DNA of 48,238 bases from a virus. Lineage: Duplodnaviria > Caudoviricetes. Shown here in pieces: positions 13,485 through 36,779 of the stretch; positions within the stretch are counted from its first letter, which is position 1; each line of letters opens with the position of its first letter. The DNA lies in IMG/VR virus record IMGVR_UViG_3300029286_000065, positions 1-48,238 of that record, one strand, 5' to 3'. The notes under the pieces were generated by a model, which was not told where the DNA came from, did no database searches, and was given only the letters and a program-made list of their open reading frames with translations. The position numbers and the translations under genes are program-made.

Positions 13485-14557
13485 TTTAAAATTAATTTAT
13501 TGAAATTATCATAATCTTTATTTATTATAAAAATAAATTGATATCCTTGTTCTTTACAAGTTTTTTCTTTAATTAAATTTTTTTCAATGTGCTTATCATA
13601 CCATATTGACGATTTAATTTCAACAATTAAATTATAATCCGGTAAATAAAAATCGGAATAATATTTTAATTTTTTATCATTTTGTTCATATAATATTGTT
13701 TTACCATTCATAATTGTAAATTCACCAAAATATTTATCTAAAAAATCTTTTTCATACGATCCCTGATAATATAATGGTGTATTCTTATAATATTTTATTT
13801 TAAATGATGTTCTTATCATTTTTTTATATATTTCTTCATTAAGTAAAACGTGTTCTACACCATATTTTCTTAAAAAAGTCTTTTTTCTTTTTTCTTTTGC
13901 AGATTCTATTTGAGATGTATATTCACAACCATATTTTTCTAAACATGTTTTTTTTGATTTTTTTTTAATAATATCACATTGTAAGGGATATTCAACACCC
14001 CAATTTTCTAAACACGTTTCCTTTATTTTATTTTTTATCGATTCAACTTGAGATACATATTCAAAACCATATTTTTCTAAACATGTTTCTCTTGATTTTT
14101 TTTTGATGTTTTCATTCGACAAACCCCAATCACATCCAAATTTTTCATTATTGGTTTCAATCTTTTTATTTTGAAAAATTTCTGATTGTGATACATTCTC
14201 TACACCATATTTTTTAATCACTGTTGATTTCATTTTATCCAAAACTTCGGTTCTTTGTGATGGATATTTTTTACCATATTTTTTTAAATTGGTTTCTTCT
14301 AATTTAAATTGTGAACATTTTCGACATAAATAATCACCAAATTTATTATTATACCCTAAGTAATCTCTATATCCAATATCTTTTTCCTTTCCACAAGTGT
14401 CACACTTACATTTAATAATAGAGTGTGAACCACTTTTGATGTTTTCTACTTTAATGTTTAATTCATCACCAACACCAATGTCTTTATATCCCAAATTCTT
14501 ATAATATTTCATATTACTTGGGTGAATGGTTACTGTTATTGATTTCGTTAATATCAT
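13481..14557 (-). CDS. Homing-endonuclease-like protein (KYG repeats, C-terminal PD-(D/E)xK nuclease)
   Basis: CDTC/CRKC; about 7 ETCLEKYG.EY-like repeats of ~22 aa; YQGSYEKDF...YYSDFYL....IVEIKS. Confidence 0.75.
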   Translation of the reverse strand: MILTKSITVTIHPSNMKYYKNLGYKDIGVGDELNIKVENIKSGSHSIIKCKCDTCGKEKDIGYRDYLGYNNKFGDYLCRKCSQFKLEETNLKKYGKKYPSQRTEVLDKMKSTVIKKYGVENVSQSEIFQNKKIETNNEKFGCDWGLSNENIKKKSRETCLEKYGFEYVSQVESIKNKIKETCLENWGVEYPLQCDIIKKKSKKTCLEKYGCEYTSQIESAKEKRKKTFLRKYGVEHVLLNEEIYKKMIRTSFKIKYYKNTPLYYQGSYEKDFLDKYFGEFTIMNGKTILYEQNDKKLKYYSDFYLPDYNLIVEIKSSIWYDKHIEKNLIKEKTCKEQGYQFIFIINKDYDNFNKLILN

Positions 14558-17183: not shown

Positions 17184-17192
17184 AAATATATA
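17184..17192 (+). promoter_or_regulatory. Putative late promoter variant AAATATATA upstream of the MCP
   Basis: One mismatch to TAATATATA, 25 nt before ATG 17218. Confidence 0.55.
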
Positions 17193-17217: not shown

Positions 17218-19017
17218 ATGGCACACTTTATAGTAGATAAGCCAAAAGCTTTAAAAAAATGGAATCCAATTTTAGAAGCCCTTAAAGTAAAGGACGATGA
17301 AAAAAGAGAATGGATGTCCGAATATGCTGAAATGCACCAGCTTCATATCAATGAAAACGTTGCATATACAACATTAAACCAAAATGGTATGGGTAATATT
17401 CTTGCCCCAACCGTTGGTACAATTCCTGCTTCCGTGTGGCAAGTCGGTGCTGGTGCAATTGGTTCTGGTGATGTTGCACAAAACTTACTTCCAGTAAGTA
17501 TGAAAATTGCAGCTCAAACAATTGGTTTAGACCTTGTTGCTGTAAAACCAACAGCTTCTCCAAGAATTGAGTTGTTATTCGTAGATTTTAAATACGATAA
17601 CGCTTATGGTGATGGAAGTCGTGAAGATCAAGATGCTGAACAAAGACCATTAGTTTTTAAAATTACAACTACATCACAAGATGCAGCTTTAGTTACTGCA
17701 TTACAATTACAACTTTCTGTTCTTGGAATTAAAGAACGTATTGGTGGAATTTCACAAAGAATGTGGGTAAAGTTAGAAGCAACTACAGCTGCTATTTTAG
17801 CAGTTGGTCCTTTAACTAATTCAAAACAAAATTGGTTGGAATTTTTAGGATTCTCACGTATTGACGGTCATCCAATTTTCCGTTGTTATCGTCAAGCTGG
17901 TTTTTCAGTTGGTGCATTAGTACCACAAGATGGTGCACCTGCATGGTCACAAACTAAAAATACATTTGATCAATCAACCGCAATGGCCACAACAATGGCT
18001 GGTGGTTTCTGGTATATTAATACAGTTGTAGCTACACATGTTCCTACAACAGTAGCAGCTACTGGTTACTTATCAGGTTTAACTATTCAATTGGTTTCAT
18101 TATTAGAAGATCAATTACCGGGATTCTCTGGTGGTTTCAATGATTTTGAAACTCCTTGGACAACTGGTGTACAAGACAACTACAAATCACAAGGTGGTGG
18201 CCCGATGAACCGTTATCAAGATGAAAAAACTTATCCAAGTGTAATTGGACCTGACGTATTTACTAAGGTTGTTACAGTTGGTGACATCGAAATCAGTTCA
18301 ACTTTAAAACGTACTCAAATCGAAGATATTAAAGCTGCAACTGGAATGGACATTGTTCAAAAATTGGAAGGTGTTCTTATCAATGAATTAACACAAGTTA
18401 TTTCAAAAGAAATCGTTGCTAAAATTAGAAGTTTAGCTTTGAAAAACAGAGTTTCTCACACTGCACCTAAAAATGCTGATGGTACAAGTAAATTCGACTT
18501 CGATGTTGATACTTACGCTGTTGCAGCTAACGCACCGGGGGGTGAAACTACACATACATTACAACGTAAATTAGTTGCGAAGATTAATAACGCTTCTAAC
18601 TTTATTGCTACTGATGGTCGTATCGGACCGGCTCAATATTTAGTAACAAACGGTAACATCGCTTCCGTATTACAAGATATCGCTGGTTATACACTTAACC
18701 CAACAAATGTTGGTAAATTGAACACAAACGGTCAATTATACCCAATGGGCAATATAGGAAATATTCAAATATATGTTGACCCATATATGAGATGGGATGA
18801 TAATTATGTTTATATTGGAAGAAAAAATACTATTGATCAACCGGGTCTTATTTTCATTCCTTATTTAATGGCACAATCTATCAGTTTAATTTCTGAAGCA
18901 ACTTGGGCACCTAGAATGTTAATTCGTTCAAGATATGCAGTAAGTGATATTGGTTTCTTTCCAGAAAAACAATTTATGGCTTTATCAGTTACCGATACTC
19001 ATGGTTATTTAATTTAA
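17218..19017 (+). CDS. Major capsid protein (T4 gp23-like)
   Basis: KW.PIL N-terminus, IGLDLVAVKP..SP, INEL...I.KEI spine helix, IYVDPY, GLIFIPY, P.M..RSRY; follows protease/scaffold; strong terminator downstream. Confidence 0.93.
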   Translation: MAHFIVDKPKALKKWNPILEALKVKDDEKREWMSEYAEMHQLHINENVAYTTLNQNGMGNILAPTVGTIPASVWQVGAGAIGSGDVAQNLLPVSMKIAAQTIGLDLVAVKPTASPRIELLFVDFKYDNAYGDGSREDQDAEQRPLVFKITTTSQDAALVTALQLQLSVLGIKERIGGISQRMWVKLEATTAAILAVGPLTNSKQNWLEFLGFSRIDGHPIFRCYRQAGFSVGALVPQDGAPAWSQTKNTFDQSTAMATTMAGGFWYINTVVATHVPTTVAATGYLSGLTIQLVSLLEDQLPGFSGGFNDFETPWTTGVQDNYKSQGGGPMNRYQDEKTYPSVIGPDVFTKVVTVGDIEISSTLKRTQIEDIKAATGMDIVQKLEGVLINELTQVISKEIVAKIRSLALKNRVSHTAPKNADGTSKFDFDVDTYAVAANAPGGETTHTLQRKLVAKINNASNFIATDGRIGPAQYLVTNGNIASVLQDIAGYTLNPTNVGKLNTNGQLYPMGNIGNIQIYVDPYMRWDDNYVYIGRKNTIDQPGLIFIPYLMAQSISLISEATWAPRMLIRSRYAVSDIGFFPEKQFMALSVTDTHGYLI

Positions 19018-19107: not shown

Positions 19108-20874
19108 ATGATTATTGATGAATACGTAAAAGTAAAAACAACCAATAAAAATATTGGTTTATATAGAAAAATAATGAATGATCCTAATATAAAATCTGGA
19201 TATATTATTACTCTATCCATTTTGAAATTACCAAAAGGATCAAAACAATTAATTGATGTTAAATGTGATGTATGTGGAAAAAATAAAAAAATGTCATTTA
19301 GAACATATTATAATATAACAAATAAAAATTCCGAAAAATATTTTTGTAAAGATTGTAAATGGGTGAAAACAAAACAAACCAATTTGGAAAAATATGGTGT
19401 TGAAAATCCATTTCAAAATGAAAAAATTAAAGATAAAATAAAAATTACAAATATAGAAAAATTTGGATTTGATCATCCATTAAAAAATGAACAAATAAAA
19501 AATAAAAGAAGAAAAACAGAATTAGAAAAATATGGTTTCGATCATCATTTAAAAAATAAATTAATTTTAAATAAATTAAAACAAACTAATTTGGAAAAAT
19601 ATGGAAATGAATGTTCTTTATTAAACAATGAAGTAAAATTAAAAACGATAAAAACAAATATAGAAAGATATGGTGTTGATGTTCCATTAAAAAATAAAGA
19701 TATTATCAACAAATTAATAGAAACAAATAATTTAAAATACAATAATAATTCCCCTTTACAAAACGAAGAAATAAGAGAAAAATCTTTAAAGAAATTATTT
19801 GAAAATTTTGGTGTATATAATCCATTGAAATCAGATATAATTAAAAATAAAGTCAAGAATACTAAAATAAATAATTTACTTTGTAAATATAAAGATTTAA
19901 ATATAGTAAATATAGATTATGATAATCAACAATATGAATTTAGGTGTGATAACAATAATAATCATAATTTTTTAATATCATCTATTTTATTATACGATAG
20001 ATTGAAATTTAAAACCATTTTATGTACAGTTTGCAATCCAATAAATTCATATTCTATAAGTGGACAAGAAATTCAACTTCAAAATATTATCAAAGAAAAT
20101 TATACTGGAAATATTATTTTAAACGATAGAAAAATTATCAAACCATATGAATTAGATGTTTATTTGCCAGATTTAAAATTGGCTTTTGAATATAATGGTT
20201 TATTTAGGCATAATGAAATGGGTAAATCCAATGACTATCATCTTAATAAAACCGAATCATGTGAAAAACAAGGAATACACTTAATACATATTTATGAAGA
20301 TGACTGGGTTTACAAACAAGAAATAGTTAAATCCAGAATTTTGAATTTACTTGGTAAAACTTCTAATGAAATTTTATCTGAAAAATGTGAAATAAAAAAT
20401 TTTTTAGATAACTCGTTAATAAAAGAATTTTTAGAAAATAATCATTTACAAGGATTTATTGAATCCAAAATTAAACTTGGTTTATTTTATAACAACGAGT
20501 TAGTATCGGTTATGATTTTTAAAAGACGTAAAAATATTTATGAAATATTAAGATTTTGTAATAAATTAAATACAAATATTATTGGTTCCGAAAACAAATT
20601 ATTTAAATATTTTGTCGAAACATATAAACCAAAAGAAATTACTGGTTATTCCGATAGATCTTGGTGTGATGATTTATATGAAAAACAACTTGGATTTATT
20701 TTAGTTGATAAAACAAAACCAAATTATCATTACATAGTTGATGGTGTTAGGAAACAAAAAATGATTAAAGAAAATAAAACGGAACATGAAATTATGTTAG
20801 AAAGAAAAATATATCGTATTTATGACAGTGGTAGTTTAAAATTTAAATACATCAATGAAAAAATTAACAAATGA
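19108..20874 (+). CDS. Homing-endonuclease-like protein, paralog of 11916-13484
   Basis: CDVC/CKDC, TNLEKYGVEN repeats, ELDVYLPDLKLAFEYNGLFRH, IHIYEDDW, IYRIYDSG. Confidence 0.75.
   Translation: MIIDEYVKVKTTNKNIGLYRKIMNDPNIKSGYIITLSILKLPKGSKQLIDVKCDVCGKNKKMSFRTYYNITNKNSEKYFCKDCKWVKTKQTNLEKYGVENPFQNEKIKDKIKITNIEKFGFDHPLKNEQIKNKRRKTELEKYGFDHHLKNKLILNKLKQTNLEKYGNECSLLNNEVKLKTIKTNIERYGVDVPLKNKDIINKLIETNNLKYNNNSPLQNEEIREKSLKKLFENFGVYNPLKSDIIKNKVKNTKINNLLCKYKDLNIVNIDYDNQQYEFRCDNNNNHNFLISSILLYDRLKFKTILCTVCNPINSYSISGQEIQLQNIIKENYTGNIILNDRKIIKPYELDVYLPDLKLAFEYNGLFRHNEMGKSNDYHLNKTESCEKQGIHLIHIYEDDWVYKQEIVKSRILNLLGKTSNEILSEKCEIKNFLDNSLIKEFLENNHLQGFIESKIKLGLFYNNELVSVMIFKRRKNIYEILRFCNKLNTNIIGSENKLFKYFVETYKPKEITGYSDRSWCDDLYEKQLGFILVDKTKPNYHYIVDGVRKQKMIKENKTEHEIMLERKIYRIYDSGSLKFKYINEKINK
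20536..20620. repeat. Right arm of the 85-bp inverted repeat (partner 12140-12224)
   Basis: 84/85 identity to the reverse complement of the partner. Confidence 0.85.
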
Positions 20875-21784
20875 TATTTTATTAGAAAGATTTTTAAGTA
20901 TTCACAAAGATAAATACGAATACGATTTTGATTCCATAAGTAATGGAAAAATTAAAATATTTTGTAAAAAACATGGTTATTTTATTCAAAGAATTTATGA
21001 CCATTTATATAATCATGGATGTACGAAATGTGGTATAGAAAAAGTATCAGAAATTAGACGTGAGAAACTTGATAATTTAATTTTAAGATCAAATAAAGTT
21101 CATAATAACAAATATGATTATTCATTAATAAAAAGTTCAAAAAATATGAATGAACATATAAATATAATATGTCCTAAACATGGTGAATTTATAACTGTTT
21201 TTAATTATCATATTAATGCAAAACAGGGATGTCCTGATTGTGCTATAGAAAATAGTAAAGATGATTTAAATATCTTTATTGAAAAATCTATTAAAATTCA
21301 TGGAATTTTATATGATTATTCAGAAGTTGATTATATTAACAGTAAAAGTTATGTAAAAATAATCTGTAAAAAACATGGTTCTTTTTTACAGAAACCAAAC
21401 TATCATATATTAGGTCAGGGTTGTCCAAAATGTAGAACATCAAAAGGTGAGAAGAAAATTTTAAATTATTTGATTAAAAACGATATAAAATTTGAATATC
21501 AAAAAAAATTCGAAAACTGTAAAGTAACAAAATCGTTATTCTTTGATTTTTATATTTATGAAAAAAATATAATAATAGAATTTGATGGTGAACAACATGA
21601 AAAAATAATTAATTATTGGGGTGGTGAAAATGGTTTAGAAAAAAGAATAAAATATGATAAAATTAAAGATGAATTTTGTTTAGAAAACAATATTTTATTA
21701 TTTAGAATAAAACACAATGAAAATATTCAACAAAAGTTGGATATTATTTTTTCTGGGAAAGATCATTTATCATATCATCGATGA
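20855..21784 (+). CDS. Homing-endonuclease-like protein with three C..HG.F...H....GC..C Zn repeats and a C-terminal PD-(D/E)xK domain
   Basis: KYDYS...IICPKHGEF...GCPDC-type unit x3; FDFYI....IIEFDGEQH...DKIKDEFC. Confidence 0.75.
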   Translation: MKKLTNDILLERFLSIHKDKYEYDFDSISNGKIKIFCKKHGYFIQRIYDHLYNHGCTKCGIEKVSEIRREKLDNLILRSNKVHNNKYDYSLIKSSKNMNEHINIICPKHGEFITVFNYHINAKQGCPDCAIENSKDDLNIFIEKSIKIHGILYDYSEVDYINSKSYVKIICKKHGSFLQKPNYHILGQGCPKCRTSKGEKKILNYLIKNDIKFEYQKKFENCKVTKSLFFDFYIYEKNIIIEFDGEQHEKIINYWGGENGLEKRIKYDKIKDEFCLENNILLFRIKHNENIQQKLDIIFSGKDHLSYHR

Positions 21785-25971: not shown

Positions 25972-27186
25972 CTAAAGTTTAAAATCAAAATCAGTTATCG
26001 ATTTATCGTTTGGTTTCTTTTTTTGAACATCTTTTAAATAAATCATATCAAATTTATCTCTGGAAAAATATTGTTCCAAATTTAAATCGAAATAAATATT
26101 TGGGTTATCATAAAAAATAACTAATTGATTAATATCTTTTATATTTTCTAAATTATGCCTTAATGAATAATCACCTTTGGATAATTCATCTATCATTTTT
26201 TTCCACAAAAAAACACATTTCCCTTGTTCTAACATTTTTTTAGCTTTTCTTAAACCCGGACCGTCATTATCAAATATAAATCGTAAATCGATATTCTCAT
26301 TATCAATTATGCTAATATCCGTATCTAAGCCAAGAAGTGACATTGAATTTGGAAAAAATATACTATCTAAATATCCTTCGAAAGCATTTACTGGTCTATT
26401 GAAATCAACATTTAAAATATTAAATAGGTGTGATAATTTATTATATGAAATAGCTTCAATTTCATCTAATTTTTCGTTTGGATTTTTATAATTATAAAGA
26501 TATTCAAATTCATGTTCTTTGTATATTCTTTTTGTTTTTTCATCTTTTAAATTTCTTAATTGAAACCCAAGTAATTTATTTCCACTTCTATTTAGAATAA
26601 TAATAACTGGTTCTTTCCATTTATCAGTAATATTGTAAATTCCCTGAAGAATATTACTATAATTTGTTATTTTTCTACTTTTTAGATAATCAAAAGCTGT
26701 AGAACCTTTTTTAATTGGTGATATTTTTGTTAAAAAACTTTTTGGTCTGTTGTTTAAAAAATCCATAAATTCTTTTGCATTTAATAATTTATCTAGATTT
26801 TCAACAACTAAATCTTCTCTATTTGTGAATGATATATTTTGACTTATATATTCATAAATATCCATTTTCTTTTCCGGGTCTAATTGGACACCAAAATGAT
26901 CACACCATTTAGTAAAAAACATACTACACGAATCTTCATTAAAACATTTTATAAACATGTTTTTGAAATAAAGATGAGAACGTTTTAAATTTGGTCTATT
27001 GTGACTATCCCCACAAATAGGACAGGCCATTGAAATTTCTGTTGGATTTTGTTCGTTTGGCCTTAATTTTATAATTTTTTTTTGATAATCGGTATGTGAT
27101 TTATTTAATATATCTTGAACAATATTAATAATATAGTTTAAATCTAATTCGGCTTTTTTATTGTTTTTAAATAATTCATTAACCAT
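25972..27186 (-). CDS. DNA primase (T4 gp61-like)
   Basis: ACPICGDS...KR..LY...KCFN...C Zn-binding domain; TOPRIM FEGYLDS, FDND, KDINQL. Confidence 0.9.
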   Translation of the reverse strand: MVNELFKNNKKAELDLNYIINIVQDILNKSHTDYQKKIIKLRPNEQNPTEISMACPICGDSHNRPNLKRSHLYFKNMFIKCFNEDSCSMFFTKWCDHFGVQLDPEKKMDIYEYISQNISFTNREDLVVENLDKLLNAKEFMDFLNNRPKSFLTKISPIKKGSTAFDYLKSRKITNYSNILQGIYNITDKWKEPVIIILNRSGNKLLGFQLRNLKDEKTKRIYKEHEFEYLYNYKNPNEKLDEIEAISYNKLSHLFNILNVDFNRPVNAFEGYLDSIFFPNSMSLLGLDTDISIIDNENIDLRFIFDNDGPGLRKAKKMLEQGKCVFLWKKMIDELSKGDYSLRHNLENIKDINQLVIFYDNPNIYFDLNLEQYFSRDKFDMIYLKDVQKKKPNDKSITDFDFKL

Positions 27187-27308
27187 TCTATTCTATCTTC
27201 TATATTTTCTTTGTGTGTTATTCTTATTAAATTTATATTAATTTATATTATTTTGACAAAATGTTGTTTTTGTCAATTTTTTAATTTTTAAACTAGACCA
27301 TTATTTCG

Positions 27309-27317
27309 TAATATATA
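27309..27317 (+). promoter_or_regulatory. Putative late promoter TAATATATA
   Basis: Exact motif 24 nt before ATG 27342. Confidence 0.6.
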
Positions 27318-27341: not shown

Positions 27342-27845
27342 ATGGAACAGAAATCATTGGAACAAATGTTTAAAAAATGGAGTCCTATTTTAGATGCTTT
27401 AAAAGTAACGGATGATAAAATTAAGAAAATTATGGTGGAATATGCTGAATATTGTTTATCACCAGAATATTATCAAAAATATGAAAATGATATTGCCCAA
27501 AATTTATTACCTGTTTCTTTAAAAATTTTATCACAATTGAATATAAAAGATAAAAATGTTGTATTAAAAGAAGATCATAAGATTGGTTTTGAAGATATGC
27601 CAACTAAAAGTTTTAGTATATCAATAAATACAGATGAATTGATTTCAATGAAAGAAAGTGTTGGTTTTGGGGGTGCTGAAAAAATGGAAAGTGTGGTGAT
27701 ACAAGAATTGGTGAATTATATAAACAAAGAATTAGAAACAAAAGAAAATTTATATATTTCAAATCTAGTTCAATCAATTTCGATCATATCAACAGATATT
27801 TATTCACCAAGAATAATATTAATATCCAAAATCTATATTGATTAA
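27342..27845 (+). CDS. Miniature paralog of the major capsid protein
   Basis: Four colinear blocks match the MCP at 17218: KKWSPILDALKV..EYAE; DIAQNLLPVSLKI; EKMESVVIQEL...INKE; VQSISIIS...SPRIILIS. Confidence 0.85.
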   Translation: MEQKSLEQMFKKWSPILDALKVTDDKIKKIMVEYAEYCLSPEYYQKYENDIAQNLLPVSLKILSQLNIKDKNVVLKEDHKIGFEDMPTKSFSISINTDELISMKESVGFGGAEKMESVVIQELVNYINKELETKENLYISNLVQSISIISTDIYSPRIILISKIYID

Positions 27846-27860
27846 AAATAATTTATAAAA

Positions 27861-28085
27861 ATGGAAGAAGAAAAATATTTGGACACTATCGGTGTTGAAA
27901 AAATATCATTGATTGGTGAAAAAAGTTTCAAACCTATTATATTTATCATATTTAAAGATGGAACTGAAGAAGTATGTAATTTTTCTAATGAAGAAATTCA
28001 AAATATAAAAAATATGGATTTTGAAGAAATTGGTGGTTGGAAATATTTTTTAAGTAAATCTAAAAGATTAAAAAATAAATTATAA
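27861..28085 (+). CDS. Hypothetical protein
   Basis: 74 aa, follows the mini-MCP on the same strand. Confidence 0.65.
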   Translation: MEEEKYLDTIGVEKISLIGEKSFKPIIFIIFKDGTEEVCNFSNEEIQNIKNMDFEEIGGWKYFLSKSKRLKNKL

Positions 28086-28088
28086 AAA

Positions 28089-28280
28089 ATGGAAGAAGAA
28101 TATAAATTAATTAAAGATGCAACGATTTCAGACAGAGATATAGAAGAACTTCGTGAAATTTTCAAACGTGAATACGCTAAGAAAAAAGGTTGGGATCCAA
28201 ATAATCTCACATCAGAACAGTTAAACGAAATATGTTCGGATAAAAGGTGGAGTGAAGGTAATTTTATGTTGAAATCATAA
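28089..28280 (+). CDS. Hypothetical protein
   Basis: 63 aa, starts 3 nt after the previous stop. Confidence 0.65.
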   Translation: MEEEYKLIKDATISDRDIEELREIFKREYAKKKGWDPNNLTSEQLNEICSDKRWSEGNFMLKS

Positions 28281-28325
28281 ACTTATCTTGATTTATTGTC
28301 TATAAATAAATAAGGAGATATATTT

Positions 28326-28643
28326 ATGGACATTTTAGACAATATTTTAGATGATGAAAACCCCGAATTATTATATACTTTTGATTTTAAATCGAAATTC
28401 AAACTGATAGACACAAGAAACGGAGTACATATTACATTCACTTATTTATTTAAACGTGGATTAACAAAAGATGAAATTAAATTTTTAGAAAATGATTTTT
28501 TTAAAAAATCAATTGATGTTAGAGATATATCAGGTTTAGAATTGAGTGATTTTAATATGAGTAAAACCTATACCGCTATTTTTTCATTGTTTTATTCAGA
28601 TGATAATAAATTTGATTGTTTTTTACACCACATCGTAAAATAA
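28326..28643 (+). CDS. Hypothetical protein
   Basis: 105 aa; preceded by TATAAATA and AAGGAG. Confidence 0.65.
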   Translation: MDILDNILDDENPELLYTFDFKSKFKLIDTRNGVHITFTYLFKRGLTKDEIKFLENDFFKKSIDVRDISGLELSDFNMSKTYTAIFSLFYSDDNKFDCFLHHIVK

Positions 28644-29228
28644 TTAATCTGGAAAATCATAAGTTGGACTAAAAACATCATCTAAATCTAAATTTTTAAT
28701 TTTTGATTTTTTTTCTATTTTTTTCAATTCTATTTCTTCTGGTGTTAAATCCTCTTCATCAAATTCAATTTCTTTTAATTTGGTTGGTCTTTTATTTGAC
28801 ATTTTATTTAAATCATAAAGTATTTTATATGTTAATTTATATTCTTCTTTATTATTATTGACCAAAATCAACGTTACAGTATATTTCCTTTTTTTCATAG
28901 CACCAAATCCCAATAATCCTCTACTACCATCGGGTGTTGCCGCTAATTCAAGTATATTTTCAGGTTCCAATCTACCATCAGATTCATTTATACCAAAAGT
29001 TATTTCATCACCATTAATAATAGGTTTTTTAACTTCAGCGAAATTCATTTGAAGAATTTTTTCAACTGATTTTAAAACTTCTTCTGGAAAATCGGTTGAT
29101 TTGGTGTCTAAGTCAATTTTATCCCCATAATCGGATAATTCTTGATCATCGTCATTATCATCGTCATTATTTTGAATATTCAAATTTTCTTTTACGAATG
29201 TTTTATAATTTTTAAGTGATTTTTTCAT
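28644..29228 (-). CDS. Hypothetical protein with a capsid-targeting-like leader
   Basis: MKKSLKNYKTFVKE; acidic tracts; late motif at 29256. Confidence 0.7.
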   Translation of the reverse strand: MKKSLKNYKTFVKENLNIQNNDDDNDDDQELSDYGDKIDLDTKSTDFPEEVLKSVEKILQMNFAEVKKPIINGDEITFGINESDGRLEPENILELAATPDGSRGLLGFGAMKKRKYTVTLILVNNNKEEYKLTYKILYDLNKMSNKRPTKLKEIEFDEEDLTPEEIELKKIEKKSKIKNLDLDDVFSPTYDFPD

Positions 29229-29255
29229 AGTTTTTATTTTTTTTTAACTTTATTT

Positions 29256-29264
29256 TATATATTA
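29256..29264 (-). promoter_or_regulatory. Putative late promoter TAATATATA
   Basis: Exact motif upstream of ATG 29228. Confidence 0.6.
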
Positions 29265-29285
29265 AAAAATAAAACGATTTTTTCA

Positions 29286-30893
29286 TTACAATTTAGATAA
29301 TCTACCCAAAACTGTCTGTTTCTTACCCATATATTCATCATGGTTTTTGATTTCTGCAATTGCTGATATAATATCACCAACATAAATATTTTGTGTATCT
29401 TCCATATTACTTTTCTTAACAACGAATTTAGGATTGATAATTCCAAATTTTGTAAAAATGTTTCCGTTTTGGTCTTTTAATTTATAAACATTAGACCAAC
29501 CATATTGAGTTTCAAATCCGCCAATATGAATAATTTCAAGATTTTCCAATTTCATTTTTTCACCAATAACCCCAACCCATTCAGATTCTTGTTTAATATT
29601 CGCATATAATTTACCAAAATAAAAAGAACAAGCTCCACTAATATAGTAAATTAAACGAGTCTTAACATAACCCATTTTTATAAAATTTGATGCGTTAAAC
29701 AAGAAATTATTTTCCTTGTTTTCTTCAATATAATCAATTACATCTTGGATCTGTGGATCATTATCACGAATTGTCTCTAATCTTGGATAATATACATCAT
29801 TACAAAAATCTTTCCAACTACTATATTCATCCCTATTGTTTATTCTTGGTGGTGTATTGGCGTATGATACATCCCCTTGAACAGATTGAGATGTTGATGA
29901 TACAAGTTTAATATTAGGATTTGGATTCTCTTCCATTTTTTTGGAATTTATCTTTTCCGCTGTGGATTTAGACATATAACCCCTATTCTTATACCACCAA
30001 ATATAATATCTAATGATTTCATTAACCGAAACTGTATCTTCTACCCAACGACCACCACCCATTCCATCATAATCATCATCAAAACCACCACCATCATTAT
30101 CCCAACTTTCAGAAATGAAAGAAATATCTGTCAAATATGTTAAAACTTTTTCGTAATCGTAACCAAGATAATTTTTGATACAAGTTCCACCAACTTTAAT
30201 AATGGAACCATCTTTTATTTTTTGAATGAAAACCGTTTTTTTACGATAAATATTTTTATGACAGTGATCACATTCTGATTTTTCCATGTTGACCATATCA
30301 ATCGGAATTTGTTGTCCGGGTGCTGGTTTTAATAAATTGTCAATGTAATCAAAAGTTCCTAAAATGATCCATTCATCTTCTGGTTTAATGACTGTTACCA
30401 TTGTTAAATCGTAAACTTCAACATCTTTGGAAACGATTTTCCAAGGGGATTTATCTTTTCCATCCAATTTTGTTTTTAATGTTGATTTTACTTGTTCAAT
30501 TTCCGATAAATCATCGGTATAATTTTTACCATTTGAAAAATTTTCACGATAATAATTGATACTATGATCACCATATGAAACAAAAGTATAATATTTTTTT
30601 GTTTCAATGAGTTTCAGAATAGGAACCGGAATTTTAATGAATTTACAAATTCTTGTGACTCTTTTGATAATCTTATCAAAAGTTGCTTTCTTGTCATCGT
30701 ATTTCGAACCGGCTTCACCACCAACTGGAATTTCAATTTTCTTTGTTTCTAATGTATAAAACAATTTAATGTTCTTGCCATCACTAACTTCTTGAACCTG
30801 ACTTTCTTCTTTCAAAAAAGTCTGGTAATCATTTACGATTTTTTCCATTTGGTTTAAGTTTGATGATACAAAATTACGATATTTATAGTTCAT
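29286..30893 (-). CDS. Phage protein with a Zn finger and a C-terminal OB-fold-like domain; capsid-targeting-like leader
   Basis: CDHC...R...VGGTC..YLG; SEWVG.IGE...ETQYG...H.EY.G.KQT.L.R; MEKIVNDYQTFLKE from ATG 30848. Confidence 0.65.
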   Translation of the reverse strand: MNYKYRNFVSSNLNQMEKIVNDYQTFLKEESQVQEVSDGKNIKLFYTLETKKIEIPVGGEAGSKYDDKKATFDKIIKRVTRICKFIKIPVPILKLIETKKYYTFVSYGDHSINYYRENFSNGKNYTDDLSEIEQVKSTLKTKLDGKDKSPWKIVSKDVEVYDLTMVTVIKPEDEWIILGTFDYIDNLLKPAPGQQIPIDMVNMEKSECDHCHKNIYRKKTVFIQKIKDGSIIKVGGTCIKNYLGYDYEKVLTYLTDISFISESWDNDGGGFDDDYDGMGGGRWVEDTVSVNEIIRYYIWWYKNRGYMSKSTAEKINSKKMEENPNPNIKLVSSTSQSVQGDVSYANTPPRINNRDEYSSWKDFCNDVYYPRLETIRDNDPQIQDVIDYIEENKENNFLFNASNFIKMGYVKTRLIYYISGACSFYFGKLYANIKQESEWVGVIGEKMKLENLEIIHIGGFETQYGWSNVYKLKDQNGNIFTKFGIINPKFVVKKSNMEDTQNIYVGDIISAIAEIKNHDEYMGKKQTVLGRLSKL

Positions 30894-30900
30894 AAAAAAA

Positions 30901-31055
30901 TTATTTCGTTTCTTTTTTAACCAATGTTACTAAATTGTCTAATGAATCTAAAATATCTAATTTTTCACCATCAGTTGTTCTTTTCCAATCTGAAGTTTTT
31001 TATAAGTTTGATTATCAGATTCGGTTATTAATTGAAATTCTTCTAAATGTTTCAT
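30901..31055 (-). pseudogene. Small tagged ORF, possibly frameshifted
   Basis: MKHLEEFQLITE...MVKN* (31055-30957); the -1 frame after an A6 run continues TSDWKRTTDGEKLDILDSLDNLVTLVKKETK* to 30901. Confidence 0.4.
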
Positions 31056-31468
31056 TATTTTATATAATTTAATTTATTTAAACCACTGTAAATATCTGAT
31101 ATTCTACATTTTAACACAACTTGTTTCTTTTGTGAAGTCCATGATGTAGATTTTGAATCAACAATGAAAGCTACAATATAAATTAAATCTCCACGTTTAA
31201 CTTCCTTCTGTAAATCTGTTTGAAAAACTGGACTACCACTAATAGCTTCTTCAAGTTTTTTAATTCTTTCTTTATCCGTAATAATGTCTGTAATTTGTAA
31301 AATTTTTATTGGTTCTGTAATTTTTTCAATTTCACCATTTTCAAGTTCACGTAGTGCTGTAATATCATCAGACAAAGGTTCGAATTCCATTGTTTTTTTG
31401 AATTTTTTAACTTTATCGTCTTTAAATTCAGAAAATTTAGTTGTTATATTTGTTTTCTCTTTACTCAT
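31055..31468 (-). CDS. Hypothetical protein with a weak capsid-targeting-like leader
   Basis: 137 aa; ITTKFSEFKD. Confidence 0.65.
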   Translation of the reverse strand: MSKEKTNITTKFSEFKDDKVKKFKKTMEFEPLSDDITALRELENGEIEKITEPIKILQITDIITDKERIKKLEEAISGSPVFQTDLQKEVKRGDLIYIVAFIVDSKSTSWTSQKKQVVLKCRISDIYSGLNKLNYIK

Positions 31469-31775
31469 TTGATTTTTTCAAGGTGATTATTTTATAGTCA
31501 TCAACATTTTCAATTTTTGATATTGAACTCAATGGAAACATACTTGGATTAGCAACTGGTGTTATTTCAGGCCAATATTCAACCAATCCATTTTCTTTTG
31601 GATTTTTATGTTGAAAATAAATTATTTGTCCAATAACATACATATAATTATGATTGTCAAATTTAAATAAATCACCAGATTTTAACCCCCTACAATATTC
31701 ATCTGGGACAATATCAAATTGATTATAATTTAACATTTCGTTTATAAATGTTTTAAATTTCTTTATTCTTTTCAT
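31461..31775 (-). CDS. Hypothetical protein with a capsid-targeting-like leader (start corrected to ATG 31775)
   Basis: MKRIKKFKTFINE; the late motif at 31801-31809 lies between the track start and this ATG. Confidence 0.7.
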   Translation of the reverse strand: MKRIKKFKTFINEMLNYNQFDIVPDEYCRGLKSGDLFKFDNHNYMYVIGQIIYFQHKNPKENGLVEYWPEITPVANPSMFPLSSISKIENVDDYKIITLKKSNE

Positions 31776-31800
31776 TTTATAATGATTATTTTTCTTTAAG

Positions 31801-31828
31801 TATATATTAATTTTTATTTTAATATATA
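31801..31828. promoter_or_regulatory. Back-to-back divergent putative late promoters (31801-31809 minus, 31820-31828 plus)
   Basis: Two exact TAATATATA copies pointing at ATG 31775 and ATG 31857. Confidence 0.65.
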
Positions 31829-31856
31829 ATAATAAAAAAGAAACAAATATAACAAA

Positions 31857-32855
31857 ATGAAAAAACAAACAAATAAAGTTAAAAAATTTAATCAATTTGT
31901 AAATGAAAATATTATTGTTATTGATTATATATTAGATAAAATTAACAAACATGGTATAGAATCTTTATCTGAAAAGGATAAAGATGTGTTAAACGGTGTT
32001 TATCAGAATAAAAAAATAGATGTTTCTCTAATAGAAAATGAAATCTTTACGATGTTATGTAATAATGAAGATGAAGATAATATATTATTTGATATAGAAG
32101 AAGAAACAAATATACATAGTCATGATATATTGCCAATATACTATTATTGTAAAAAAGTTTATGATAACATAGAAGAACTATTTAATAATTTAAGTGAATC
32201 TCCAAGTGTATATGATTTTTTTGAATTTTTTGTTTCTTATAATACTGATAGTTATTTATCATTATTTAATAACGATAAAGAATGGATTATAACTAAATCA
32301 TTTAAAGAATCCTTTGAAAATGAAGATATAGATTTAGATGATGAAGATTTTGATAATATGAAATATGATATAATTAAATGTTTTGAATTAGAAGAAATAA
32401 AGGATAAATTTGGAACTTTCAATCTAAATAAAGAAAAAGAAATATATTCAGACCAAGATATATCTAAACCAGAAAATTTTATACCCAAATCTGGAGATGT
32501 TGGATCAAAAATGAATGGTGGTTTACTAGTTAACAAGGAACAAAAATTAATTGTTTCTGAAATCGATTTGGGTCAGACTGATTGGGAAAATGCTAAAAAA
32601 TTATGTTCCGATTATAGGGGTGGTGGTTTTAATGACTGGCGTTTACCGACTAAAGATGAACTAAACCAAATTTATTTATTATATAAAATGAATGTTGATA
32701 ATTTACTTCCCCATTCCTATTGGAGTTCCTCAATACATTTATCTATTTACTATTGGGTGCAGTATTTTGTCGGTGGACATCAGAACTTCACTAATAAGAC
32801 TAACAAGTTTTGTGTTCGTCCTGTCAGGAATTTTATTAATTGTTCATTAAATTAA
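31857..32855 (+). CDS. Tagged protein with a DUF6576-like helix, an acidic region and a C-terminal DUF1566/Lcl C-type-lectin-fold domain; candidate DGR target
   Basis: VKKFNQFVNE; IDYILDKINKHGIESLSEKDK.VL; W.NAK..C...GGFNDWRLPTKDEL...YWSSS...VRPVR. Confidence 0.8.
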   Translation: MKKQTNKVKKFNQFVNENIIVIDYILDKINKHGIESLSEKDKDVLNGVYQNKKIDVSLIENEIFTMLCNNEDEDNILFDIEEETNIHSHDILPIYYYCKKVYDNIEELFNNLSESPSVYDFFEFFVSYNTDSYLSLFNNDKEWIITKSFKESFENEDIDLDDEDFDNMKYDIIKCFELEEIKDKFGTFNLNKEKEIYSDQDISKPENFIPKSGDVGSKMNGGLLVNKEQKLIVSEIDLGQTDWENAKKLCSDYRGGGFNDWRLPTKDELNQIYLLYKMNVDNLLPHSYWSSSIHLSIYYWVQYFVGGHQNFTNKTNKFCVRPVRNFINCSLN

Positions 32856-32914
32856 ACAATTGTACAAATCAATCCAATCACATTTCATTTTAAAATTCCA
32901 TCTTTAAATAAAAA

Positions 32915-33229
32915 ATGAAATATTTATTAAACAAAATTAAATTTTTTCTGATATACAATAAGAAAAAAGTTATCGTTATGAACATTCAATTTGTAAATTA
33001 TAAAAAATTTGAAATAGAAAAAAATGATTTTTCTGTTTCAGAAGAAACTGGTGAAATGATAAAAGGTGAAAAGAAAATAAGTGTGGTGTATATGGGTTCG
33101 GTGTCATTTTCACCGGATCGTATCATCGATTTTTTAAAAAATTTAGAAAAACAATGTACAATAGGTAAAAGAGAAGTTTATATATATGAAAATTCAACTT
33201 GTGAAGATTTTTGTTATGCTATTGTATAA
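32915..33229 (+). CDS. Hypothetical protein (start may be the internal MNIQFV)
   Basis: ORF track; the N-terminal part is low complexity. Confidence 0.55.
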   Translation: MKYLLNKIKFFLIYNKKKVIVMNIQFVNYKKFEIEKNDFSVSEETGEMIKGEKKISVVYMGSVSFSPDRIIDFLKNLEKQCTIGKREVYIYENSTCEDFCYAIV

Positions 33230-33243
33230 TATCAGAATAAATA

Positions 33244-33798
33244 TTAAATTGTAATTTTATTTTTATTACTTATGAATCTTGGAGAAGCCTTCGAAATATA
33301 AAAATCAAAATTTGAATTTTTCTTCTTTACTTTCTTCAATATATCAATAATAATTTTGTCAATATTTGATTTTGATTTACCTTCAATTCTTCTATATCCA
33401 CTTGAACTGAAACCAAAGTCATTAGTTTCTTCAATTCTATTCAATAAAAGGAAATTTGGATCATCATAAATATTATTATTTGTTAATTTAATTTCTTTGT
33501 TCATCCATCCATGAGAAAACGGATTATCTTCCTTTGCAACATATAAATTTCCATCAATATCAACTATCACTCTAACATTCGGTTCGAAATTATCCAATGA
33601 TTTTGGATTTTTATAAACAGGTGTTGAATATCGAATGTCATTAAAACCAGACCCATTAACATAACCAAAAGGTTTTTCTTCTTCATCTTCATTGATGTAT
33701 TTATTCGTAGTATCAGGTATATTAAATTCTCTTTGTGCATATTTATCCGCGACACCCTCTAATTGTTTAAAATTTTCAAAAGTTTTTAAATTTTTCAT
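33244..33798 (-). CDS. Hypothetical protein with a capsid-targeting-like leader
   Basis: MKNLKTFENFKQLE. Confidence 0.7.
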   Translation of the reverse strand: MKNLKTFENFKQLEGVADKYAQREFNIPDTTNKYINEDEEEKPFGYVNGSGFNDIRYSTPVYKNPKSLDNFEPNVRVIVDIDGNLYVAKEDNPFSHGWMNKEIKLTNNNIYDDPNFLLLNRIEETNDFGFSSSGYRRIEGKSKSNIDKIIIDILKKVKKKNSNFDFYISKASPRFISNKNKITI

Positions 33799-34109
33799 TT
33801 TTTCATTAAAGGTTTTTCAGATTTTTTATCTGAATCACTAAGATTTTTAGACACTCTAAATCTCCACTTATCTATTCTTTTTAATTTATCTTTCTTTTTC
33901 TTATCACCGGAAAAAAAATCACTTTTAACATTAATTGGTACAAGTCCTAACAAATGTTTATCACCTGTGGGGTGTCCAATCACATCTATGATGGTATTAC
34001 CATTAGATAATTGTGTTGGATTGTTATTAAATCCACTACTATTACTACCGTAACCAACATTACGATAATCTTCTTTAATGAATTCACTATATGTTAAAAT
34101 TTTATCCAT
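33795..34109 (-). CDS. Hypothetical protein with a basic tail and a capsid-targeting-like leader
   Basis: MDKILTYSEFIKE, close to T4 IPIII MKTYQEFIAE. Confidence 0.7.
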   Translation of the reverse strand: MDKILTYSEFIKEDYRNVGYGSNSSGFNNNPTQLSNGNTIIDVIGHPTGDKHLLGLVPINVKSDFFSGDKKKKDKLKRIDKWRFRVSKNLSDSDKKSEKPLMKK

Positions 34110-34124
34110 TTCTTTAATTTTTCT

Positions 34125-34133
34125 TATATATTA
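34125..34133 (-). promoter_or_regulatory. Putative late promoter TAATATATA
   Basis: Exact motif 15 nt upstream of ATG 34109. Confidence 0.6.
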
Positions 34134-34171
34134 ATTTTTTTATCTCAATAATTTTTATATATCTTTATATT

Positions 34172-34930
34172 ATGAAAAAAATTTTAACTATTGGAGATTT
34201 GCACGGCAGAACTATTTGGAAAACATTTGCTGATATTAAATTTTTACTTACAGCAGAAATTGGTACAGCTGGTTATGCACCATTTGAACCCGATTATGAT
34301 TTGTTTATTTTTCTTGGTGATTATACGGATTCGTTTACTGAAAGTAATGAAACTATTCGTGAAAATCTTTTAGAAATCATTAGATTCAAAACTTTATATC
34401 CTAATAATGTTATTTTGCTTTGGGGTAATCACGATATTGAATATTATTTAAATAAACCTTGGTTACCGTTAAAAACTGCAATTAGTGGATTTCGATCTGA
34501 AATGCATTATGATATATATGAAATTTTTAAAAAAAATGAAAATCTTTTTCAAGTTGCATTTCAAATAGAAAATTATATTTTTTCCCATTCTGGAATTCAC
34601 TTTGATTGGTATTTTCATGTTTTCACCAAAGCTATCAAAGATATGGGGTGGGATGATTTAAGTGTTGCTGACCAAATCAATAATGCATTTAATCAACGTA
34701 TAGATTGTGTATTTGATGTCGATCATTATCGTGGTGGTTATAAAAAAGTTGGAGGACCATTATGGTGTGATAAAAGATTGATGGAAAAAAAACCACTAAA
34801 AAACACAAGACAAATTTGTGGACATAATCCAGTTAATGATATAACAACTATTAATATAAACGATAATACCAGTATAACTTTTTGTGATGTTTTGCATAAG
34901 AAAAATACTTATTATTCACTTAATATTTGA
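34172..34930 (+). CDS. Calcineurin-like metallophosphoesterase
   Basis: GDLHG, GDYTD, GNHD, SHSG and GH motifs. Confidence 0.9.
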   Translation: MKKILTIGDLHGRTIWKTFADIKFLLTAEIGTAGYAPFEPDYDLFIFLGDYTDSFTESNETIRENLLEIIRFKTLYPNNVILLWGNHDIEYYLNKPWLPLKTAISGFRSEMHYDIYEIFKKNENLFQVAFQIENYIFSHSGIHFDWYFHVFTKAIKDMGWDDLSVADQINNAFNQRIDCVFDVDHYRGGYKKVGGPLWCDKRLMEKKPLKNTRQICGHNPVNDITTININDNTSITFCDVLHKKNTYYSLNI

Positions 34931-35483
34931 TAATATCAATTATTTTTATTTGATTACTATCAAAAACAATCCAATCATATCTATCTGGTTTATCACCATA
35001 ATATTCAATTTCATTCAAATATTCAATAGAATCATAACCTTCCATTTTTAAATAAGATTTATAATAAAAAGATAGTGTTTTATTTTCAACAATATTATTA
35101 TCCAACATTTCATCAACAATAGAATCTTCATTCATGGATATTGTATGATATGGGAGTTTTAACAATTCATCCAATTCTTCTGTTTTTATATTTAAAAGAC
35201 CAGTTTCATCTCCCCACTTTAACATATTTCTAACTAAATCACCTTCATTTATTTTTAATGTTTTATTAACGGTTATTTCTACTTCATAAATAACCTTATC
35301 AGGTTTTTTTGCAAATTTATTTGCCACATCTTTATTTGGTGTAAAATGATAACCAAGATAACTCAACAAATGATTATCTTTTCCCAGTTCATTCTGATTA
35401 AATTTATTAAATAAATGTCTGGAACCATGATACAAATGGGGAATTGATTCGTTTTTTTCAAATATTTGGAAATTGGTTATCAT
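34920..35483 (-). CDS. ADP-ribosyltransferase-like (ART-PolyVal-type) protein, tagged; start likely ATG 35483
   Basis: MITNFQIFE; LYHGS...F..F...LG...GYHFT....A..FA...GYDSI.Y.NE.E...F...QIK; ATGA overlap with the upstream paralog. Confidence 0.65.
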   Translation of the reverse strand: MITNFQIFEKNESIPHLYHGSRHLFNKFNQNELGKDNHLLSYLGYHFTPNKDVANKFAKKPDKVIYEVEITVNKTLKINEGDLVRNMLKWGDETGLLNIKTEELDELLKLPYHTISMNEDSIVDEMLDNNIVENKTLSFYYKSYLKMEGYDSIEYLNEIEYYGDKPDRYDWIVFDSNQIKIIDIIKY

Positions 35484-36079
35484 GGATTTAACATTGGTTT
35501 TTGATCCCATACGTGGATTATTTTTATTTGATTTTCATTGAATGCAATCCAATCGAATCTATCAATTTCAGGTAATTCTATTTCATTTTCATATTTAATT
35601 GAATCATAACCTTGTTTAATTAAATAATCTTTATATGACAAAGATATTTTTTTAGAATCTTCGGATTTTAAATATAACAATTTATGAGATATCGTTTCTT
35701 GTGATATTTCATAATAAGGTAATTTTAAAATTTCATCAAAAATTCTATTTTGTCGGTTAAAAATATATTTATTTATTATATTATTTTCAACACCAAATTT
35801 TAACATATTTCTAACTAAATCACCCTCTTTAATTATTAATGGTTTGTTAACTTTTAATTCAACTTCATAAATAACATAATCTGGTGGGTTCATAAATCTT
35901 TCAGCAACAATTTCATCTTCAGAAAAATGACAACCCAAAAAACTCAAAAGATGACCATCCTTACCTAATTTATTGAAATCAAAGAGTTCAAATTTGGTGG
36001 AACCGCCATGAAATAATGGTCCAACAGTATATTTGGTTTGTTCATTTAAGAAATTTTTATAATACAATAGATGGTTCAT
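35480..36079 (-). CDS. ADP-ribosyltransferase-like protein, tandem paralog of 34920-35483, tagged
   Basis: MNHLLYYKNFLNE; LFHGG...GCHFS...GYDSIKYENEIE...FNENQIK; shares EGDLVRNMLK with its neighbour. Confidence 0.65.
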   Translation of the reverse strand: MNHLLYYKNFLNEQTKYTVGPLFHGGSTKFELFDFNKLGKDGHLLSFLGCHFSEDEIVAERFMNPPDYVIYEVELKVNKPLIIKEGDLVRNMLKFGVENNIINKYIFNRQNRIFDEILKLPYYEISQETISHKLLYLKSEDSKKISLSYKDYLIKQGYDSIKYENEIELPEIDRFDWIAFNENQIKIIHVWDQKPMLNP

Positions 36080-36779
36080 TGTTCTTCGGTTTTATTTTTA
36101 TGTAGAATGAAATATCATCTTCCGAATCATCTATATAAGATTCAACTTTTTTACCCCAAGGAAATTTATTACACCAATCGGTAAAATATTTGTCTAAATC
36201 TTTTTCTTCTTTCAATTGATCTTTCGAAATAATTTTTCGAAGTCTTTGTGTTGTGATTATTGTAATAGTTTTACTTTTTTTATCTTGAAATAGATTTTTT
36301 AAATCCTTTTTAACTTCTTGTAATATTTTTAATGTTCTGGTATTTGTTTCCGACAGAACCCCATTAATTAATATTAGACATTTATAAGATTTTATACTTC
36401 TCACTTCTTTATCTTTCACTTCAAATTGTCCGGTTTTATAAATTATGTCTGTCATATCATTGTAAAAACCATATTCGATCATATTATTTCTAATACCAAA
36501 ATAAAAAGATAATCTTTCGGTATTTATTTTTTCATAAATATTAAATGTATTAATATTTGAGTCTTTAAATTCAAAAGCATCTGATATATCAATTGGTTTT
36601 TTAATTATTTCGGTTCTGAAAAAATAAAGAAAATTTCCAGTATTTAAATAATTACTAGTTTTAACAAAAGAAAAATTTAATTCATCCAATGTATGCAAAA
36701 ACATGTAAAAACCAAAACGACCATCTATTGGGTGATTTTGATTATTCTCTTTTATATATGTCAAGAAGTCTTTTACCAT
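36057..36779 (-). CDS. Hypothetical protein with a capsid-targeting-like leader
   Basis: MVKDFLTYIKE. Confidence 0.7.
   Translation of the reverse strand: MVKDFLTYIKENNQNHPIDGRFGFYMFLHTLDELNFSFVKTSNYLNTGNFLYFFRTEIIKKPIDISDAFEFKDSNINTFNIYEKINTERLSFYFGIRNNMIEYGFYNDMTDIIYKTGQFEVKDKEVRSIKSYKCLILINGVLSETNTRTLKILQEVKKDLKNLFQDKKSKTITIITTQRLRKIISKDQLKEEKDLDKYFTDWCNKFPWGKKVESYIDDSEDDISFYIKIKPKNNEPSIVL

Follow-up and report, generated by a model that had tools for sequence, protein, structure and literature searches.

The window analysed here, meaning the whole 48,238-nucleotide stretch from a Caudoviricetes virus (IMG/VR record IMGVR_UViG_3300029286_000065), carries on its plus strand an open reading frame (27342..27845) of 167 aa, which starts with the ATG at 27342 and whose stop codon ends at 27845. 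The frame is intact, and the ORF encodes a paralog of the T4-type capsid protein from which internal parts have been spliced out; the ORF will be called the mini-capsid gene, and its product the mini. The parent gene, 8.3 kb upstream (17218..19017, +), encodes a T4 gp23-type major capsid protein (MCP) of 599 aa (Pfam Gp23, E 2e-28), for which T4 gp23 gave the best structural matches. The portal gene (10112-11923) stands before the MCP gene and the protease/scaffold gene (14677-17115) lies between the two. Four homing-endonuclease-like genes (11916-14557 and 19108-21784) flank the protease and capsid genes; those at 11916-13484 and 19108-20874 are 50% identical to each other.

A promoter-like site (27296..27317, +) precedes the mini gene. 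It consists of AATATATA at 27310-27317 and a GACC/AACC element about 11 bases upstream of this motif, and the element recurs in several orthologous loci. The same AATATATA is found at 17185 before the MCP gene and also before the protease gene. In the 60 bases upstream of the 55 window ORFs it was counted 13 times, against 3.45 in shuffles (maximum 9 in 200 shuffles), and upstream of the 1,004 ORFs of the relative LR756501 146 times against 29, an enrichment of about four- to five-fold. The motif of its own that the sequence-only reading had assigned to the mini gene is thus present, common to the MCP gene and enriched; its action as a late promoter is putative.

Downstream, a 74-aa gene (27861..28085, +) has homologs that adjoin minis in other loci and in one case (P0025) are fused to a mini, and its start may bear a weak likeness to the last block of the mini (E 0.002-0.008). 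It is followed by genes of 63 and 105 aa (28089..28643, +), which are conserved in relatives and anchor the variable mini locus; the other conserved flank is a divergent primase-like gene (25972..27186, -). Further on (28644-36779) lies a cluster of ORFs whose T4 CTS-like N-termini (F-x-x-F-x-x-E) mark them as likely packaged internal proteins. This pattern, which we take to be the CTS-type targeting motif of T4 internal head proteins, is absent from the mini and present in nine other window ORFs.

The relation between the mini and the window MCP is apparent at two levels. BLASTP returned three colinear HSPs (E 4e-10, 3e-4 and 2e-3), and a profile of 120 minis, built without any MCP row, matches the window MCP in the same order with 71, 34 and 20 bits. 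Among 2,000 shuffled MCPs, of which 908 gave any domain, the best domain reached 4.6 bits. About 118 residues of the mini correspond to four colinear MCP blocks with new linkers between them, as the sequence-only reading had proposed from the letters of the two genes, and the two proteins differ by three internal deletions and a C-terminal trim. Block 1 (aa 11-37, MCP 13-39; 27372..27452, +) comprises two helices, is identical at 17/27 positions (ungapped, as are all identities given here) and is the family's best conserved part (K12, W13, Y34, E36). The first deletion removes MCP 40-84, most of the mature N-arm. Block 2 (aa 50-65, MCP 85-100; 27489..27536, +; 12/16 identical) is an N-arm helix and covers the first third of a Gol-like region. 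A family-specific linker of 22 aa (aa 66-87; 27537..27602, +), with the motif LNLxxK and a short strand, then replaces MCP 101-355, that is the E-loop and the insertion domain. In block 3 (aa 88-131, MCP 356-399; 27603..27734, +) a P-domain strand, a short helix and the first half of the spine helix are found; aa 88-105 match MCP 356-373 at profile level only (2/18 identical), and aa 106-131 share 10/26 residues with MCP 374-399. MCP 400-543, the remainder of the spine helix and the A-domain, is deleted, and the spine helix joins directly to block 4 (aa 135-165, MCP 544-574; 27744..27836, +; 9/31 identical), the P-domain beta-hairpin. The earlier description of an intact but diverged frame with several internal deletions is therefore borne out.

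Block 1 aligns weakly (conditional E 0.012) with residues ~7-40 of T4 gp23. As these lie inside the 65-residue N-terminal piece that is described as being removed from gp23 at maturation (PMC9546572), block 1 is likely a capsid propeptide. E46, invariant in 50 MCPs, is the putative cleavage site of the parent protein. The conserved NE that follows block 1 was found in 5/120 minis, and therefore the propeptide may stay on; in the window mini, YE or ND could serve as cleavage site.

Block 2 matches residues ~87-105 of T4 gp23, again in a weak alignment. The Gol region of gp23 is presumed here to span residues 94-122, and on this mapping about a third of it would be kept. The stretch matching T4 106-120 (IG[LF][DN]L motif) is missing in 119/120 minis, and the mini does not hold a complete Gol region of the Lit-activator type. 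The equation of block 2 with the Gol region consequently holds for its start and fails for the remainder; the same likeness and difference appear against the T4 Gol region as described in PMC3014915.

The AlphaFold model of the mini (120 alignment rows) has a pLDDT of 90.6 and a pTM of 0.85, with helices at 6-19, 25-39, 56-65, 97-105 and 110-133, strands at 72-75 and 88-94, and the hairpin at 136-166. In VIA, all of the top 50 matches are HK97-fold capsids or encapsulins (Z 5.1-7.8, over a model range of about 50-167; best match Z 7.8, rmsd 3.4, 96 aligned). The Z values are moderate, yet the matches are all of one kind and consistent with the sequence, and the mini is predicted to be an HK97-type P-domain sheet with half a spine helix. 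Foldseek against the PDB and viral sets gave no match at E<=0.001, the mini profile found 0 matches among PDB sequences, and the ESM Atlas, whose own model was poor, offered nothing usable. The MCP itself is modelled with a pLDDT of 61 and a pTM of 0.41 (residues 42-131 low). Block mapping and model together show that the E-loop, the insertion domain and the A-domain are lost and the P-domain strands kept. Since A-domain and E-loop are gone, the mini is probably not a capsomer builder, as had been suggested. A homotrimer prediction scored 0.01 against a mark of 0.42, which speaks neither for nor against such an assembly. The spine helix and the N-arm, also listed earlier as retained, are so in part: half of the former and one helix of the latter. 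In the BFVD, three proteins of 155-170 aa (A0A6B9WTQ7, A0A2D2W583 and A0A859AH17) match the mini model with TM 0.40-0.45 and E 0.01-0.04, and these are possibly unrelated mini-HK97 cores of other phages.

The mini belongs to a family. A word search yielded 20 homologs of 144-269 aa, and the family profile found 334 protein clusters at E<=0.001, a few of them full capsid proteins, and 146 at 1e-10; orthologs, whose absence would have been a mark of decay, are therefore plentiful. The best 150 of the 334 clusters were listed, and the 168 proteins classified comprise 142 that cover the entire profile but are not full MCPs, 6 full capsid proteins and 20 partial ones. Among proteins shorter than the MCP, the matches listed were high-identity pieces, mostly on short contigs, and are probably cut capsid genes. 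Neither Pfam nor PHROG returned anything below E 0.01 for the mini, and none of the 61 matches in a pattern scan of bacterial genomes was confirmed. Because the members share the new linkers (LNLxxK; IN..L..K..LY), a single origin is indicated. When trees were computed from the 118 shared columns, a single branch set the minis apart (30 minis, SH-aLRT 100; FastTree with 60 minis, node value 0.18), a grouping weakened by long branches and cluster-level sampling. Exact MCP words of at least 10 residues are kept in 18/120 minis. Most members stand alone. Fusions to RHH domains (P0019 and P0163, weak at E 0.003-0.009 and short of the cut-off) and to an HTH domain (P0137, E 1e-10) were seen, RHH genes lie upstream of minis in several loci, and tandem two-domain minis exist. 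By eye, P0010, P0016 and P0066 appear to be minis fused to permuted capsid-like pieces, with an insertion- or A-domain-like part first.

With the wide profile, a four-block mini was found in 6/12 records, namely LR756501 (two copies), LR756500, G005, G006, G007 and G002, and not in LR756502, LR745206, LR756504, G008, Lak-B5 and PTm1; some records are fragmentary and very distant minis could escape this search. LR756502 and LR745206 carry a capsid copy of an N-terminal-quarter type instead. Three of the four GenBank genomes of 634-735 kb thus lack the four-block form. Compared with the window MCP, that of LR756501 (735 kb) shows 70% identity and those of the three genomes of 634-642 kb about 49%. 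The largest phage genomes described in PMC7162821 are placed in the Mahaphage clade, and Bacteroidetes hosts are predicted there for phages of this size class. No description of the mini family or of self-derived capsid decoys was found in the open literature, and where preprints found there speak of a 'decoy', a host-side one is meant. The family is apparently undescribed so far.

Close pairs of minis gave dN/dS values (NG86) of 0.05/0.42 = 0.12 (L274/L278) and 0.03/0.13 = 0.23 (L279/L286). All pairs listed stay below 1 (0.12-0.84), the distant ones being near dS saturation. These ratios indicate purifying selection, and neutral evolution, which had been named as a ground for dismissing the gene, does not describe it. 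Divergence is nevertheless fast: between the window and G003 the mini is 45% identical, against 67-79% for the flanks and 88% for the MCP. At 46 MCP-invariant hydrophobic positions the minis carry on average 78% hydrophobic residues, and at 44 MCP-invariant polar, Gly or Pro positions the same residue occurs in 38% of minis. The MCP-invariant P-domain charges K364, R365, E369, R566 and R570 are kept in 12-23%, and the tip of the block 4 hairpin is variable. From these alignments, the fold appears to be kept while the surface drifts. The locus changes as well. The 105-aa flank is kept in 10 of 18 distinct loci (22 loci in total), the window's twin included, and stands beside very different minis in 9/17 distinct other loci. 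Two or more mini copies or remnants occur in 5/18 distinct loci, one relative (L005) has a copy split into 128 + 62 aa, and many tiny capsid fragments look like recombination debris. Contigs from the sequencing runs are mixed at this locus with many co-occurring relatives, which makes strain-level variation unreadable. Near another mini gene, L289:7505-8119 encodes a 205-aa capsid fragment of other design (MCP 323-561 span).

The capsid protein is not the only one to have been cut down. Each genome was queried with its own capsid, portal, protease, sheath and terminase, Lak-B5 and PTm1 serving as controls, and short self-copies of these five core proteins (E<=0.01) numbered 21 in LR756501, 11 in G005 and 1 each in Lak-B5 and PTm1; among the 21 + 11, some are weak (E 0.001-0.01) or adjoin the parent gene. 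The capsid copies include an A-domain piece (188 aa) and an insertion-domain piece (169 aa). In the protease copies GEFDHP has become GELGYP or GEIGNP and SSR is lost, so that the His and Ser motifs are gone, and a copy of the terminase ATPase is without the Walker A lysine; all of these we take to be catalytic residues. The mini is likely one of a wider set of cut-down head and tail protein copies in this phage group.

Several further observations were made in the relatives. At L126:1492-2213 and L133:1486-3020 (LR745206, LR756502), an N-terminal-quarter capsid copy is followed, by eye, by ORFs resembling the sheath N-terminus and pieces of the portal. The mature capsid N-arm segment occurs in ORFs of LR756501 (730457-730708) and G005 (280865-281659), in the former immediately after a targeting-like N-terminus ending in NE. 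The large terminase of LR756501 apparently consists of two distant genes (609229-611493 and 623868-624410), whose intein-like ends suggest a split intein. A 456-aa ORF of LR756501 (497200-498567) combines DNA-polymerase-B-like motifs (by eye), a D-P-Y-G-E-E-x-W tag and capsid block 2 with a Gol-like stretch. This tag is found in 86/1,004 LR756501 ORFs (L158-L194), in 40 of them near the C-terminus, and its carriers are packaged-type proteins, membrane proteins and core-protein fragments. Of 103 strict copies in six frames, 100 fall in called ORFs; their codons vary, though with a bias (TAC 75%, CCT 67%). The tag is also present, mostly in loops, in 12 of the mini-family proteins examined, and absent from G005, Lak-B5 and PTm1; G005 (L241-L272) has a different tag, RxxKIxxIL, which ends 30 ORFs and is always C-terminal. 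Fragments make up 9/77 tagged and 56/841 untagged small ORFs, which is no clear enrichment. A model of bait plus tag was not adopted on this ground and because the window mini lacks the tag.

Capsid, portal, terminase and tail-class proteins are reported triggers of bacterial sensors (10.64898/2026.01.04.697583, PMC13728456). The mini is read here, with a probability of roughly 0.4, as a decoy of the unassembled capsid precursor for such host sensors. It would be an internally deleted, selected copy of the phage's own capsid precursor, predicted to form a small soluble domain in which the propeptide helices and the N-arm helix pack on a P-domain sheet with half a spine helix. To judge from the shared promoter motif, it would be expressed along with the head genes, and the loss of A-domain and E-loop would keep it out of the shell. 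It may then bind a sensor that reads the P-domain sheet, the spine helix or the N-terminal part. With the A-domain contacts and the larger part of the Gol-like stretch missing, activation would not follow, and sensors that detect unassembled capsid protein would be occupied but not fully triggered. CapRel offers a possible target: it has been modelled on the P-domain sheet and spine helix of the capsid protein, plus A-domain loops (PMC9712102). As the mini has the former elements and not the A-domain contacts, binding without activation could result. Occupation of a trigger site is described for DSAD1, which blocks DSR2 in this way (PMC11087589). Avs7, 8 and 10 are reported to bind the capsid A-domain interface (10.64898/2026.01.04.697583, PMC13728456), and the mini cannot be a decoy for these because that interface is absent. 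Several points weigh against a decoy. A capsid mimic might equally trigger a sensor, the propeptide/N-helix bundle may owe its position as best conserved part to a partner within the phage, for instance the scaffold, and the RHH and HTH fusions suggest other uses. The dN/dS ratios below 1 in all pairs listed, the split L005 copy, the debris-like fragments and the weak or parent-adjoining self-copies belong on this side too. A broader version, in which megaphages hold a putative library of decoys cut domain by domain from their own essential proteins against fold-reading sensors, is tentative and on balance doubtful. It would comprise the capsid core, capsid A-domain, insertion domain, portal, dead protease, dead terminase ATPase and sheath end, with the mini as its most widespread member and smallest self-folding HK97 core.

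Other roles have to be weighed against the decoy. The stable core may have been put to use as an all-purpose interaction or regulatory domain, coupled for example to DNA-binding proteins, without any link to capsid sensing. This is unlikely: the weak RHH fusions, the HTH fusion, the upstream RHH genes, the tandem forms and the ease with which these genomes reshuffle short tags and pieces of genes speak for it, and the mostly stand-alone minis, the long exact MCP words in 18/120 of them and the parallel copies of other head proteins speak against it. Modulation of head assembly, suggested earlier as a size or assembly regulator, is likewise unlikely. Here the kept propeptide and P-domain would bind the scaffold/protease or the growing lattice edge and tune nucleation, size or timing, in keeping with the promoter motif common to the mini, MCP and protease genes and with a propeptide that may stay on (NE in 5/120). 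In T4 proheads the contacts between capsomers are made by a short helix and a hairpin, both of which the mini retains along with the region where the T4 residues M98, H282 and M284 anchor the portal (PMC9546572). The partner of a near-invariant MCP should itself be conserved, however, and the drift of the P-domain charges and hairpin tip, together with the absence of minis from 6/12 records, including three of the four large GenBank genomes, argues the other way. A kept fold, a drifting surface, a changing copy number and dispensability are easier to reconcile with a decoy than with a lattice partner.

Fast divergence and patchy presence would fit phage-phage conflict too, with the mini as a dominant-negative capsid piece that poisons head assembly of co-infecting relatives. 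Many relatives co-occur in the same sequencing runs, and satellite capsid homologs are known to redirect assembly (Ccm, PMC8569155). Since the MCPs of relatives share 53-88% identity and hardly vary in the kept blocks, self-poisoning would be hard to avoid, and no immunity gene is evident; such a weapon is distinctly improbable. That the gene is a decaying duplicate or an assembly artefact is largely refuted. The split L005 copy and the many remnants nearby in relatives would agree with decay, but hundreds of clusters, shared junctions, dN/dS of 0.12 and 0.23 and a pLDDT of 91 do not.

The decoy reading matters because the folds that bacteria sense in capsid, portal, terminase and tail proteins are conserved and hard for phages to alter; if it is true, self-derived decoys would be a general phage answer to fold-sensing immunity. 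Whatever its function, the mini, with its 167 aa of propeptide and P-domain and its predicted fold, marks out a minimal HK97 core. The model also suggests how a T4-type propeptide may pack on the capsid protein, the propeptide being absent from the matched mature-shell structures.

Among known systems, T4 gp23 and gp24 (Gp23; PDB 7vrt, 1yue) are structurally closest: the parent is of gp23 type, and the mini keeps P-domain strands and the start of the spine helix (against gp24 in VIA: Z 7.0, rmsd 4.1, 121 aligned). The vertex protein gp24, however, is a paralog of almost full length that has A- and I-domains and assembles into pentamers; the mini has neither domain and is patchily distributed. 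Ccm of SaPIbov5, as described in PMC8569155, is like the mini a diverged capsid homolog with a cleavable N-terminal domain that forms no capsids alone; unlike the mini, it has 355 aa and a full HK97 fold, forms vertex pentamers and is encoded by a satellite against its helper. A vertex protein of gp24 or Ccm type was rejected for a protein of 167 aa that lacks the pentamer-forming A-domain and occurs in 6/12 records, and the portal-vertex adaptor of the sequence-only reading is disfavoured by the same patchiness and by the fast divergence (45% against 88% for the MCP). DSAD1 provides a model of how the mini may work, being a small phage protein that competes with a structural trigger at the sensor site; it targets DSR2 and the tail tube, and in the available text of PMC11087589 it is not described as derived from its trigger. 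The mini shares with it the character of a small, fast-changing accessory gene in a variable locus. The cryptic protease gp117 of SPN3US (PMC5694885) is a truncated, presumably inactive head-assembly paralog in giant phages. It represents a simple truncation of a protease and not a capsid core with multiple deletions, but it is the nearest precedent for a cut-down paralog of a head protein.
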